The position numbers and the translations under genes are program-made. Source: Dehalococcoidales bacterium (GTDB taxonomy: Bacteria; Chloroflexota; Dehalococcoidia; Dehalococcoidales; W693). From it: 64,000 bases of DNA. Below the pieces are notes generated by a model. It was not told where the DNA came from. It saw only the letters and a list, made by a program, of their open reading frames with translations, and did no database searches. The DNA is taken from positions 13,653 through 77,652 of the forward strand of contig DAOUDM010000019.1 of assembly GCA_034431095.1 (NCBI GenBank), given 5' to 3'. Shown here one piece after another: positions 2,723 through 60,060 of the stretch; within the stretch, counting starts at the first letter, position 1; each line of letters opens with the position of its first letter.

Positions 2723-4147
2723 ATAAATCCTATAAAGTTTGGCACCGACGGCTGGCGAGCAATCATCGCCGAGGACTTCACCTTTGACAACGTTCGCCTC
2801 TGCGCCCAGGCGGTCGCCGTATATCTTAAAGACAGCGGGCTGGCACAAAGGGGGCTGGTCATCGGCTACGATACCCGCTTTGCCTCCGAAGACTTTGCCC
2901 GGGCCGCCGCCGAGGTAATCTGCGGCAACGGGATAAAGGTATACCTGTGCCCCAGAGCCGCCCCGACGCCGATGGTCAGCTATGGCGTCCTGGCAAAGCA
3001 AGCCGGCGGGGCTATCGTTATCACCGCCAGCCATAACCCGCCGCAATGGAACGGCTTCAAGTACAAGTCGGCAAACGGCACCAGCGCCCCGACGGAGGTC
3101 ATCGCCGAGCTGGAGAAGAGCATCGCCACTATTACCACTACGGGCAAGATAAGCCGAATACCGCTGGCTGAAGCTCAAAAACAAGGGCTGATAGAATACA
3201 CTGATCTGGCGCCAAGCTATGTAGAGCAGATAAAGAGCCTCATAGACCTTGACGGATTAAGAAAAGCCGGGCTCAAGATAGTGGTTGACTCTATGTACGG
3301 TGCCGGCGCTGGCTACTTTAAGATGCTTCTGGATGGAGGTGCCACAAAGCTCCTGGAGATAAACGACGAACGCAACCCTGTCTTCCCCGGCATAAAACAG
3401 CCGGAGCCGATTGCCGTCAATCTAGCTAAGTTATCAGACAGGGTCAGGCGGGAAAAGGCTGACATCGGTATCGCCACCGACGGCGATGCCGACCGTATCG
3501 GCATTATAGATGAAAAGGGCAACTTCCTGACCCAGCTCCAGGTCTTTGCCCTGCTGGCGCTATATCTTCTGGAAGTGCGTGGTGAGCGGGGCGCCATTGT
3601 TAAGACGATAACCACCACCAGCATGCTCTACCGTCTGGGCGAGATATTCAATGTGCCTGTCTATGAAACACCGGTGGGCTTTAAGTACGTCGCCCCGATA
3701 ATGCTCGCCCGGAACGCCCTCGTTGGTGGGGAGGAGAGCGGTGGCTATGGCTTCCGCGGGCATGTGCCCGAGCGCGATGCTATACTCAGCGGACTCTATT
3801 TCCTTGATCTGATGGCCAGGACGGGCAAGACGCCATCGCAGTTGCTGGACTACCTCTACAGCAGGGTAGGTCCTCACTACTACAGCCGTCTGGATATAGA
3901 GTTTGCCGAGGAGCAGAGAGAGAAAATAATCAGCCGCGTCCGGGATAGCTCTCCGGAGACGCTTGGCGGGGTTAAGGTGGCTAACAAAGACACCATCGAC
4001 GGTTTCCGCTTTACCCTGGCCGATTCCTCCTGGCTTCTCATCCGCTTTTCCGGCACCGAGCCACTGCTCCGCATCTATAGCGAAAGCAATAGCCAGTCCC
4101 GCGCCGAAAGACTGCTCGAACTGGGCCGGGAGATAGCCGGGGTCTAG
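2723..4147 (+). CDS. phosphoglucomutase/phosphomannomutase family protein (alpha-D-phosphohexomutase)
   Basis: Has the active-site TASHNP motif and the conserved N-terminus KFGTDGWR, which is encoded at 2735-2758. The frame is open from 2723. The first canonical start is ATG 2972, which would delete about 80 conserved residues. The proposed start is ATA 2723 (or 2732), downstream of AAGGGGGTGA (2708-2717). Confidence 0.8.
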   Translation: MNPIKFGTDGWRAIIAEDFTFDNVRLCAQAVAVYLKDSGLAQRGLVIGYDTRFASEDFARAAAEVICGNGIKVYLCPRAAPTPMVSYGVLAKQAGGAIVITASHNPPQWNGFKYKSANGTSAPTEVIAELEKSIATITTTGKISRIPLAEAQKQGLIEYTDLAPSYVEQIKSLIDLDGLRKAGLKIVVDSMYGAGAGYFKMLLDGGATKLLEINDERNPVFPGIKQPEPIAVNLAKLSDRVRREKADIGIATDGDADRIGIIDEKGNFLTQLQVFALLALYLLEVRGERGAIVKTITTTSMLYRLGEIFNVPVYETPVGFKYVAPIMLARNALVGGEESGGYGFRGHVPERDAILSGLYFLDLMARTGKTPSQLLDYLYSRVGPHYYSRLDIEFAEEQREKIISRVRDSSPETLGGVKVANKDTIDGFRFTLADSSWLLIRFSGTEPLLRIYSESNSQSRAERLLELGREIAGV

Positions 4148-35608: not shown

Positions 35609-35683
<75 letters not shown>

Positions 35684-40984: not shown

Positions 40985-41572
40985 ATGAAGGTTATCGGTC
41001 TTACCGGCGGTATCGGTAGCGGCAAGAGCACGGTAGCCGGGTTTCTGGTCGGGTTGGGGGTGGTTGTCATTGACGCCGACAAGGTCGGGCACGAGGTTCT
41101 CGAAGGTGATGGCGAAGCCCAACGGCAGGTTGTGGCTGTTTTCGGTCAGCATATCGTTACCCCCGACGGCAAGGTTGACCGTAAGAAGCTGAGCAGTATA
41201 GTTTTTGGCAGCCCTGAGGCACTGTCCCGGCTGAACCGCATTATGCACCCGAGGATTAGTGAGGCGGTAAAAGTACAGCTTGAGCAGTATCGGCAGCAGG
41301 GGGTGGATATAGTCGTCATTGAAGCCCCACTGCTTATTGAGGCCGGCTGGGCGGCAAAGGTTGACGAGGTCTGGGTTACCACTGCTCCCCGGGTGGCAAT
41401 ACTCAAGCGGCTTGAGCAATTGGGGCTGTCTCGTACCGAAGCTATGGCGCGCATTCGTTCCCAGTTGCCAGACAGGGAGCGGGTGAAGCAGGCCAATGTG
41501 GTCATCAACACTGACTGTAGCCTTGATGAGCTTAAAGAAAGAGTGGAGGAGCTGTGGGAGGGATTGTGCTAG
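40985..41572 (+). CDS. coaE: dephospho-CoA kinase
   Basis: MKVIGLTGGIGSGKST starts at ATG 40985. The ORF-track start at 40949 adds 12 non-conserved residues. Confidence 0.9.
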   Translation: MKVIGLTGGIGSGKSTVAGFLVGLGVVVIDADKVGHEVLEGDGEAQRQVVAVFGQHIVTPDGKVDRKKLSSIVFGSPEALSRLNRIMHPRISEAVKVQLEQYRQQGVDIVVIEAPLLIEAGWAAKVDEVWVTTAPRVAILKRLEQLGLSRTEAMARIRSQLPDRERVKQANVVINTDCSLDELKERVEELWEGLC

Positions 41573-41647
41573 GGCAGAAAGTCAAGATATTTAAATGTGT
41601 TAAGCAATGTTAGATGTTCCTGTGCATTCCTGTAAGAGTATAAACGT

Positions 41648-41677
41648 TTGACACCTATAAACGGTTGCTGATAGAAT
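41648..41677 (+). promoter_or_regulatory. sigma-70-like promoter for rplU-rpmA-rpmE
   Basis: TTGACA (41648-41653), N18, TAGAAT (41672-41677), with TGA immediately upstream (extended -10). Confidence 0.6.
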
Positions 41678-41705
41678 ATAGTGTTTTGATTGATGGAGGC
41701 CTGTT

Positions 41706-42086
41706 ATTTACGCTGTTGTTGAAACCGGTGGCAAGCAGTATAAAGTAGCCCCCGGTCAGACCATAGATGTCGAGCGCCTGGGGGTAGCCGAGGGCGATAC
41801 CGTCGAGCTGGACAGGGTATTGCTTATTGCCGACGGCGATAGTGTAACGGTAGGCAAGCCCACCATTCCCGGGGCTAAGGTAGTGGCTACTGTAAAGGGA
41901 GAGGGCAAGGGCGATAAGGTTATCGTCTTCAAGTACAAGCCCAAGGTACGTTACCGTAAGAAGACAGGTCATCGTCAGTTCTACACCAGGCTGTCCATTG
42001 ATAAGATAAGCCAGCCGGGGGATCAAGGAGAGAAGCCCAAGAAACCCCGGCGGAGTAAGAAAGAGGTAACCGAAGGTGGCGCATAA
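41706..42086 (+). CDS. rplU: 50S ribosomal protein L21 (apparent ATT start codon)
   Basis: The conserved N-terminus (I/M)[13 protein letters not shown] is encoded from ATT 41706. An in-frame TGA lies at 41691, and no ATG/GTG/TTG occurs before ATG 41820. A GGAGG SD at 41695-41699 sits 6 nt upstream of the ATT. Confidence 0.8.
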
Positions 42087-42330
42087 GAAGGGTGGCGGCT
42101 CGACACGATATGGCCGCGATAGCAATGCCAAGCGGCTCGGGGTAAAGAGATACGCCGGGCAGAGGGTAAATGCCGGAACCATCCTGGTGCGGCAGCGGGG
42201 GACATATATCCACGCGGGTAACAATGTCGGTGTCGGCAGGGACCATACCCTCTTCGCCCTTATTGACGGCGTCGTCAAGTTCGAGCCAGCGACCAAGAAC
42301 AGGAGGAAGGTCAGCATCTGTGCTGGCTAA
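42076..42330 (+). CDS. rpmA: 50S ribosomal protein L27
   Basis: 84-aa ORF beginning MAHKKGGGS. Confidence 0.95.
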
Positions 42331-42335
42331 AGGCT

Positions 42336-42542
42336 GTGAAGGATAAGATTCATCCCAAATACTATAACGATGCCAGTGTAGTCTGTTCCTGTGGTAACAC
42401 CATTACCATTGGTTCGACCAAAAAAATGATGAAGGTCGAGCTGTGCAGTGCCTGTCATCCGTTCTTTACCGGCGAGCGCCGGATGGTGGATACCGCCGGG
42501 CGCGTGGAGCGGTTCAGGCGACGCTACAAGATAAAGGACTGA
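42336..42542 (+). CDS. rpmE: 50S ribosomal protein L31 (zinc-binding type)
   Basis: 68-aa ORF with a GTG start, IHPKY, and CSCG...CSACHPF. Confidence 0.9.
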   Translation: MKDKIHPKYYNDASVVCSCGNTITIGSTKKMMKVELCSACHPFFTGERRMVDTAGRVERFRRRYKIKD

Positions 42543-58515: not shown

Positions 58516-60060
58516 CTAATCATTATTTATCACGATGTGCTTGCGCCACTCGGGTGAAGTCTCGGGGAAATCGGAGCGGAAGTGAGCGCCACGGCTCTCC
58601 TGTCTCAGGATAGCCGCCTCGGTCAGCAGGCGTCCGGTCAAGACCAGGTTTGCCATCTCGTACGAAGGACGGTCTTTCGGCTGGGGCAGGGACTCCTGCC
58701 AGCCAGCCAGTGTCTCGGCGGCTTCGACCAGCCCTTCTTCGTTCCGGATGATGCCTGCTTTATCCCAGAGGAGCCGTTGCAGGGTGGGAAGGCTGGGTGA
58801 AATCTTCCTCTTGGGTGGCTGTCTCCGCTCGAGCGAGAGGTGGATGTCTGCATCCTGACCGGGGACGGTCGCTGTCGGTTTGTCCGGCCTGCCGGTCTTT
58901 TCTATAATCCTCTTACCGAAAATCAGCACCTCCAGCAGTGAGTTCGAAGCCAGTCGGTTTGCCCCGTGGGCTCCGGTGCAGGCAACTTCGCCGGCGGCGA
59001 ACAGCCCGGTTATGCTGGTTTCGCCCCAGGTGTTGACCCTGACGCCGCCTATGGTGTAGTGGGCGGCTGGTGCCACCGGTATCGGTTGCTTGGTTATATC
59101 CAGGCCGTGGTCGAGGCAGAAGCAGTATATCTGGGGGAATCTGGTGGCGGTAATGTGGGGTGGTAGATGGGTGACGTCGAGCAGGACATTGTCCGCCCCG
59201 GTCTTTTCCATTTCGTGTAAAATACTGCGGGCGACGATGTCTCGCGGCGCCAGCTCGGCCTGCGGTGTATAGTCGGGCATAAAGCGGTAGCCTTCTATGT
59301 TGCGCAGTATTCCCCCCTCGCCCCTTACCGACTCCGAGATGAGGAAAGGGATTACCCCGGGAAGACACAGTGCGGTGGGGTGGAACTGGAAAAACTCCAT
59401 GTCTACTATCTCGGCGCCAGCCCGGAAAGCCAGGGCTATGCCGTCGCCGGTGGCTATCGGGGGGTTGGTGCTGAACTTAAATAGCTGTCCGGCGCCGCCG
59501 GTAGCCAGCATCAAGAAGTGGCCGCCGAACTCTTCGGTGGAGTTGTTCTCGCAGTCGAGGACTCTTACCCCGTTGACCCTGCCCTTCTCCACGATGATAT
59601 CGGTCGCCAGGTGGTGCTCCATGACCCGTATTTCAGTTGAGAGCACCCTTTTACTCAGCGTTAGCTCGATATGTTCACCGGTGGTATCGCCTCCGGCGTG
59701 GAGGATACGGGGCAGGCTGTGTGCCGCCTCCAGGGTGAGGTCAATCTCTCCGTCTAGTGTATCGAAGGGCACGCCCAGGTTGACTAGGTCAGCGATGCGG
59801 TCGGGGGCTTCGTTGACCAGGATACTCACCGCCTCTTCGTTGCACAGACCATCGCCGGCGGTTATGGTATCCTTGAAGTGTAGCTCCGGCGAGTCGCTTT
59901 TGCCTATAGCGGCGGCGATGCCCCCCTGGGCTAACCTGGTATTGCAGTCGTCGATACTGCCCTTGGTTATCAGGAGCACGCTTCCCTGCTCCTGTGCCAG
60001 CAGGGCACAATACAGCCCGGCAATACCACTGCCGACTATGATGTAATCATAGCGATAAAT
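58516..60060 (-). CDS. nadB: L-aspartate oxidase (apparent ATT start codon)
   Basis: The FAD-binding N-terminus YDYIIVGSGIAGL is encoded upstream of the first canonical start, GTG 59979. The frame is open from 60117. ATT 60060 has GGGAGG 7 nt upstream. Confidence 0.8.
   Translation of the reverse strand: MYRYDYIIVGSGIAGLYCALLAQEQGSVLLITKGSIDDCNTRLAQGGIAAAIGKSDSPELHFKDTITAGDGLCNEEAVSILVNEAPDRIADLVNLGVPFDTLDGEIDLTLEAAHSLPRILHAGGDTTGEHIELTLSKRVLSTEIRVMEHHLATDIIVEKGRVNGVRVLDCENNSTEEFGGHFLMLATGGAGQLFKFSTNPPIATGDGIALAFRAGAEIVDMEFFQFHPTALCLPGVIPFLISESVRGEGGILRNIEGYRFMPDYTPQAELAPRDIVARSILHEMEKTGADNVLLDVTHLPPHITATRFPQIYCFCLDHGLDITKQPIPVAPAAHYTIGGVRVNTWGETSITGLFAAGEVACTGAHGANRLASNSLLEVLIFGKRIIEKTGRPDKPTATVPGQDADIHLSLERRQPPKRKISPSLPTLQRLLWDKAGIIRNEEGLVEAAETLAGWQESLPQPKDRPSYEMANLVLTGRLLTEAAILRQESRGAHFRSDFPETSPEWRKHIVINND

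Follow-up and report, generated by a model that had tools for sequence, protein, structure and literature searches.

The gene for ribosomal protein bL21, rplU, occupies positions 41706–42086 on the forward strand of the window, the whole 64-kb stretch of Dehalococcoidales DNA analysed here, and comprises 126 codons followed by TAA (42084–42086). Its reading frame is closed on the 5′ side by an in-frame TGA (41691–41693), 15 nt before the triplet ATT (41706–41708), and a reading of the sequence finds no in-frame ATG, GTG or TTG between the two. A Shine–Dalgarno (SD) sequence, GGAGG (41695–41699), is followed by the 6-nt spacer CCTGTT and then by ATT, after which the frame continues TAC GCT GTT GTT GAA ACC GGT GGC AAG CAG; the first-pass annotation of this DNA had placed the start of rplU at the ATT behind this stop and this SD sequence, and on direct reading all of its coordinates hold. 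Translated from ATT, with Met put at codon 1, the product scores 123.3 bits against the bL21 model TIGR00061 (cutoff 43.7), with all of profile positions 1–101 of 101 falling on residues 2–102; membership in the bL21 family models (TIGR00061/PF00829) was judged by a full-length match above the curated cutoff, and the match here runs end to end. The first canonical in-frame codon is TTG (41820–41822), at codon 39, and initiation there would cost 38 conserved residues, as had been predicted, although the codon had been taken for ATG. As far as the letters of the window go, rplU is without a usable canonical start, and AUU 41706 is the point at which its conserved N-terminus starts.

Immediately downstream, rpmA (bL27; TIGR00062, 130.6 bits) runs from a GTG start at 42076 to 42330 on the same strand, and rpmE (bL31; NF000612, 102.9 bits), also on the forward strand, forms the third gene of the cluster at 42336–42542, an order shared with two relatives (L161, L162). 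The rpmA GTG overlaps the 3′ end of rplU by 11 nt (42076–42086), an overlap of the same length being present in 52 of 75 loci of the ATT clade defined below. Because the rpmA start lies inside the end of rplU, synthesis of L27 is probably coupled to translation of rplU. The conserved C-terminal tail of L21 (KKEVTEGGA) encodes the SD sequence and start of rpmA, which may explain the conservation of this tail.

The best database homologues of the window L21 are 73–89% identical to it, and those with a named source derive from Dehalococcoidia or Chloroflexota, with a patchy series of called N-termini (VIYAV, MIYAV, LGGREIYAI, MGGSKIYAI, MEVGKIYAI, MLYGGAHIYAV) and, in other calls, 143-aa forms carrying 17 extra residues and one 114-aa truncation. 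Among the best 120 homologues, Ile precedes the conserved Tyr in nearly all, behind extensions of 1–17 residues, and only two begin MYA. Uneven and unconserved extensions of this kind, which often read through GGAGG (the ‘GG’ of LGG and MGG), are what results when gene callers seek a canonical codon that is absent. The call recorded for the window's own 145,298-bp contig is an 88-aa product from TTG 41820 (P0362), a false start, and the first downstream canonical codon differs from relative to relative, lying between codons 13 and 97. The expectation of the first-pass annotation that callers limited to ATG, GTG and TTG would mis-annotate the gene is borne out by the 88-aa record and by the extensions among the best 120 homologues. 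NCBI starts the L21 of GCA_011170385.1 (L162) at ATT, written as Met (product MYAVIES...), and the database convention thus already covers the AUU-start case. Nearly every public L21 call in the clade has a wrong N-terminus, through extension by 1–17 residues or through truncation, and, bL21 being a common marker protein, these errors pass into marker-gene alignments. In a literature search, no paper came up that describes rplU as starting at AUU or reports non-canonical starts in Dehalococcoidia.

For comparison at the DNA level, loci were sampled from species-representative genomes (80), metagenomes (80) and several single contigs, anchored on the motif YA(V/I)(V/I)ETGGKQ. The 80 loci with ATT or ATC at codon 1 reduce on de-duplication to 77 unique loci (the ATT clade), consisting of the window together with Dehalococcoidia MAGs and metagenome contigs, and 59 canonical-start loci served as the comparison set. 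In one complete-genome MAG (L014, CP070810.1) the rplU start region, at about 1417–1500, consists of masked letters (N), which hide the start codon. The first-pass annotation had left it to an alignment of relatives to decide whether ATT is conserved or alternates with ATG; the aligned 5′ regions show a conserved ATT and no free alternation with ATG, and this conservation gives strong support to its claim of initiation at AUU 41706. Codon 1 is ATT in 74 of the 77 unique loci, ATC in 3 and ATA in none, the ATC loci (L019, L020, L121) having the same SD spacing as the others. Internal Ile codons of the same genes are ATT 324 times (47%), ATA 208 times and ATC 156 times, a difference from codon 1 with a binomial p of about 8e-21 in a test that ignores phylogeny, which indicates a constraint on nucleotides and not on isoleucine. 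At four-fold degenerate sites of conserved residues in these genes the major allele has a mean frequency of 0.53, silent sites having largely turned over. Beyond the clade, in other Chloroflexota, Firmicutes and further groups, the codon that aligns with the ATT is ATG, GTG or TTG.

Perfect GGAGG lies upstream in 72/77 ATT-clade loci, as against 28/59 canonical-start loci, and begins 10–14 nt 5′ of the start codon in 74 of the 80 ATT/ATC loci counted before de-duplication. In 39/77 loci no in-frame canonical codon occurs between the nearest upstream stop and ATT, this stop being placed in some members of the clade 6–18 nt from ATT; in 37/77 an in-frame ATG, GTG or TTG is present somewhere upstream, mostly 5′ of or within the SD sequence or promoter and at unconserved positions. 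Codon −1 is free, with 23 different codons across the clade. The rplU gene shows the features by which an AUU-start gene was recognised, namely no available canonical codon, an SD sequence at functional spacing, and AUU conserved beyond Ile usage.

Constraint extends to codon 2 (TAC, 41709–41711), which is TAC in 75 of the 77 clade loci and TAT in none, as compared with 52 TAT and 23 TAC at Tyr codon 12 of the same genes (Fisher p = 3e-22, phylogeny ignored). Were codon 2 TAT, the G of the following GCN would complete an out-of-frame ATG at +4, 4 nt past the AUU and within reach of the same SD sequence. TATG or CATG at the start is found in 15/59 canonical-start loci and in 0/77 ATT loci, and no out-of-frame ATG falls within −6 to +12 of the start in the ATT clade. 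We infer from these counts that TAC at codon 2, constrained at the nucleotide level, serves the avoidance of an out-of-frame ATG.

The promoter reported in the first pass as TTGACA-N18-TAGAAT, about 50 nt upstream, is present on the forward strand: promoter scanning identifies a −35 hexamer TTGACA (41648–41653), an 18-nt spacer and TAGAAT (41672–41677) as part of an extended −10 element TGaTAGAAT (41669–41677, with TG at 41669–70), matching the consensus at 11/12 positions. The −10 element ends 28 nt, and the −35 element begins 58 nt, 5′ of ATT 41706, and the distance originally given was roughly right. A near-consensus sigma-70 promoter is kept directly 5′ of rplU across the clade (L001–L163): TAnAAT is present in 62/77 loci, mostly 20–30 nt 5′ of ATT, and of these 62 the TG extension is found in 59 and a perfect TTGACA, 16–19 nt upstream of the −10, in 51. 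The position of the −10 predicts a 5′ untranslated region of only ∼20 nt. The layout of the clade thus runs from TTGACA and TGnTAnAAT through a short leader to GGAGG, which a spacer, mostly of 6–8 nt, separates from ATT-TAC-GC; its recurrence in 76 other unique loci means that it is not due to chance. Rfam searches at the gathering score returned two tRNAs only for the whole window and, at E ≤ 1 over 41500–41850, no match and no known leader RNA; RNAalifold predicted 0 pairs for the start region of 32 clade sequences; and the single-sequence fold of the rplU 5′ region was no better than shuffles (z = −0.63). No structured ribosomal-protein leader, of the Rfam L21 type or another, was found at the window rplU by these searches, and nucleotide conservation around the start is not explained by RNA structure. 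Directly 5′ of the SD sequence stands an out-of-frame ATG (41693, within ATGGAGG), which opens a 9-codon ORF ending at TGA 41720 (41693–41722). ATG, TTG or GTG at the equivalent position is common to many, not all, members of the clade, and may simply reflect the T-rich sequence that precedes the SD sequence.

In a neighbour-joining tree of the first 100 L21 residues, the ATT and ATC loci fall into one contiguous cluster of 87 leaves, within which nested escapes are few and all directed towards canonical starts. ATG has replaced the start in place at a single locus of the cluster (L116) and stands one codon upstream in L015; in a small group it lies three codons upstream, giving M-x-x-T-YA, and a further group has acquired a Lys-rich N-terminal extension, its old codon 1 being now internal and variable (ATT, ACT, GCT). 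The tree is shallow evidence, based on 100 residues and unbootstrapped, but its pattern fits a single old origin of ATT followed by retention. The comparisons taken together indicate that rplU almost certainly starts at AUU, and that this start, present in at least 76 other unique sequences from Dehalococcoidia, is an old, selected feature.

The probability that rplU starts at AUU 41706, as judged from sequence comparison, is put at about 0.85–0.9, and other explanations of the ATT were weighed against it. The true start might be the codon before it, which is GTG in the nearest relatives, with GTT 41703 in the window a recent mutation or base-call error; VIYAV or MIYAV is indeed the called N-terminus of the best protein matches, and GTG ATT is the reading in L161 and L163. 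Yet this codon varies between GTG, GTA and GTT among the window and the three nearest relatives fetched (L161–L163), is GTT in L004 and L081 also, elsewhere in the clade is AAG, GAG or any of 20 further codons, and stands only 3 nt from GGAGG, whereas ATT is kept in each locus compared; the variation explains the ‘VIYAV’ gene calls and excludes GTG as the genuine start, and an origin of the frame at this codon is very improbable. That ATG was misread or misassembled as ATT at 41708 is suggested by prior expectation only and is scarcely conceivable: 73 other unique loci, drawn from assemblies and samples that are unrelated, also have ATT, and 3 more have ATC.

Initiation at TTG 41820 would yield the 88-aa L21 recorded for the source contig and would use the first canonical codon in frame, but deletes residues that include the N-terminal motif matching the family profile from position 1; protein conservation at the codon level continues 5′ of 41820 across the clade, the first canonical codon shifts its place between relatives over the range already given (codons 13 to 97), and a start there is given next to no credence. 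Hardly any greater weight attaches to a start at the out-of-frame ATG 41693 with programmed frameshifting into the L21 frame: the ATGGAGG sequence is common to several close relatives, but the ATG has no SD sequence of its own and commands only the 9-codon ORF to TGA 41720, a start codon is missing from this place in many clade members (for example ACGGAGG, CAGGAGG), in L002 the short ORF ends after 3 codons, and there is neither a slippery site nor a conserved RNA structure.

Two further genes in the window had been cited in the first-pass annotation, together with rplU, as a sign of recurrent AUU and AUA initiation, of which the part concerning nadB stood and that concerning the pgm-like gene proved specific to the window. 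The nadB gene (L-aspartate oxidase; 58516–60060, minus strand) begins at ATT 60060–60058 with GGAGG 7 nt upstream, and a start at its first canonical codon, GTG 59979, would leave the protein without the GxGxxG FAD motif. Both ATT and SD sequence are kept in four close relatives (L164–L167), one of the four (P0121) is started by NCBI at ATT, and more distant NadB homologues begin M/V/L-N-Q-YDY; on this comparison nadB is a second, younger AUU start. Many public nadB calls are truncated to 437–495 aa, and in the sub-lineage of the window callers truncate NadB as they do L21, with loss of the FAD-binding motif. The pgm/PMM-family gene (2723–4147, forward strand) follows a TAG (2720–22) with ATA at 2723–25 and again at 2732–34, offers no canonical start until codon 83, and is truncated to 391 aa in its public call (P0249). 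Its 5′ end reads TAG ATA AAT CCT in the window and TTG AAA AAT AAT CCT in the nearest relative (L168), and nearly all listed homologues have canonical starts; this window-specific start loss, for which the evidence is weaker than for nadB, may reflect initiation at ATA, an error in base calling or damage to the gene. A crude SD-based scan of the window for further near-cognate starts found only rplU and nadB credible, the other matches being shadow ORFs or triplets beside a canonical start, as with ATA 19832 and ATG 19826 in rplB.

Judged by sequence conservation, the AUU of rplU joins the known non-canonical-start genes infC, pcnB, ebpA and Deinococcus rpsL as an unusually well supported case by comparison. 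Like E. coli infC, rplU is a gene of the translation apparatus with an SD-driven start, and the AUU, AUC or AUA of infC is conserved across many taxa (PMC7797042, PMC5499595, PMC2830850), the start codon being in both a selected feature and not an accident; unlike that of infC, the product of rplU is a 50S protein rather than a proofreading factor, and a direct autoregulatory loop is not implied. In Deinococcus-Thermus, CTG, ATC and ATA starts of rpsL (S12), dnaA and infC, respectively, are supported by proteomics (PMC2830850). The rpsL case shares with rplU a ribosomal protein gene, a lineage-conserved non-canonical start, mis-annotation and the involvement of several genes, and differs in gene, in codon (CUG as opposed to AUU) and in phylum; the rplU evidence is comparative only, yet extends across many more genomes. 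AUU is likewise a genuine start in E. coli pcnB and, as ATT, in Enterococcus faecalis ebpA (10.1101/063800, PMC4447247), where the annotated downstream ATG proved wrong (PMC4447247). In pcnB and ebpA the rare codon limits proteins of low abundance, whereas L21 is stoichiometric with the ribosome and its promoter and SD sequence are near maximal. The L21 leader of Firmicutes is a structured ribosomal-protein leader RNA, catalogued in Rfam, upstream of rplU; like it, the AUU would be a control element acting in cis at the head of the rplU–rpmA operon, and the leader in the window differs in being ∼20 nt long and unstructured, with no Rfam match.

By established mechanism, pairing of the SD sequence with the anti-SD would position the 30S subunit at AUU, where initiator fMet-tRNA (anticodon CAU) would read the codon with a third-position mismatch, giving the same Met-Tyr-Ala N-terminus as in other bacteria; ribosomes completing rplU would reinitiate at the overlapping rpmA start, by which AUU would gate both L21 and L27. 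AUU is rejected by IF3, the basis of infC autoregulation (PMC7797042, PMC5499595), and nutrient limitation and ppGpp preferentially inhibit mRNAs with non-AUG starts (PMC5499595). If the AUU is kept for conditional output, as tentatively proposed below, initiation at rplU would remain open to proofreading of the start codon and would respond to IF3 and to nutrient state or ppGpp, and the synthesis of 50S protein would be tied to initiation capacity. Initiation at AUU in E. coli proceeds at ∼1–2% of the AUG level (range 0.02–3%) (bioRxiv 10.1101/063800), which is awkward for a stoichiometric protein such as L21 unless context or lineage raises its efficiency.

With promoter and SD sequence near maximal, the start held near-cognate and competing AUGs purged, a reading in which AUU is maintained for conditional, and not merely low, output of L21 and L27 is favoured, tentatively and at somewhat less than even odds. 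More doubtful is the fuller proposal that, in a large part of Dehalococcoidia, rplU–rpmA would act as a translational valve with output tracking free IF3 and, via IF2, ppGpp; if true, it would be the ribosomal-protein counterpart of infC autoregulation, perhaps within a lineage-wide rise in AUU use that takes in nadB too. Feedback by IF3 on a ribosomal protein is, in its simple form, not obviously homeostatic, and a search for infC by motif in the six-frame translation of the window yielded nothing credible.

The main alternative to conditional output is that the AUU is real and non-regulatory, near-cognate starts being tolerated in this lineage because its selection of start codons is relaxed, and the codon being a frozen accident for which a strong promoter and SD sequence compensate. 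In keeping with tolerance, the same 64-kb window holds nadB with its conserved ATT behind GGAGG and the pgm-like gene without any canonical start, and the enrichment of GGAGG in the ATT clade (72/77 against 28/59) is to be expected from compensation. A neutral state should, however, drift to ATG, GTG, TTG or ATA, whereas T is kept in 74/77 loci and ATA never occurs, in genes with largely turned-over four-fold sites and in a cluster with only one locus bearing ATG in place; the neighbouring codon 2 is constrained in a manner that protects a weak start, and the initiator tRNA retains the three G–C pairs used in start-codon discrimination. Tolerance with compensation is rated unlikely overall, while remaining the strongest competitor.

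The tRNA in question is an initiator-type tRNA-Met on the minus strand (35609–35683), beginning CGCGGGG and with anticodon CAU, in which the anticodon stem carries the GGG/CCC pairs and position 1:72 is unpaired, as a C1 × U72 mismatch. The corresponding mismatch of the E. coli initiator tRNA is C1 × A72. In its sequence the window initiator tRNA appears ordinary, and nothing points to a special AUU decoder.

On this essential, stoichiometric ribosomal protein a near-cognate start has persisted over a long span of evolution, with promoter, SD sequence and flanking codons tuned around it. The rplU gene offers a clean natural case for the question of why bacteria keep weak start codons, and its AUU makes it possible to test whether initiation fidelity (IF3, ppGpp) is linked to ribosome biogenesis in anaerobes that grow slowly. 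The sub-lineages of the cluster that have left AUU are natural experiments on its replacement; taken together, the escape loci are L009, L012, L113, L123 and L143, then L015, L116, and L129, L130 and L139.
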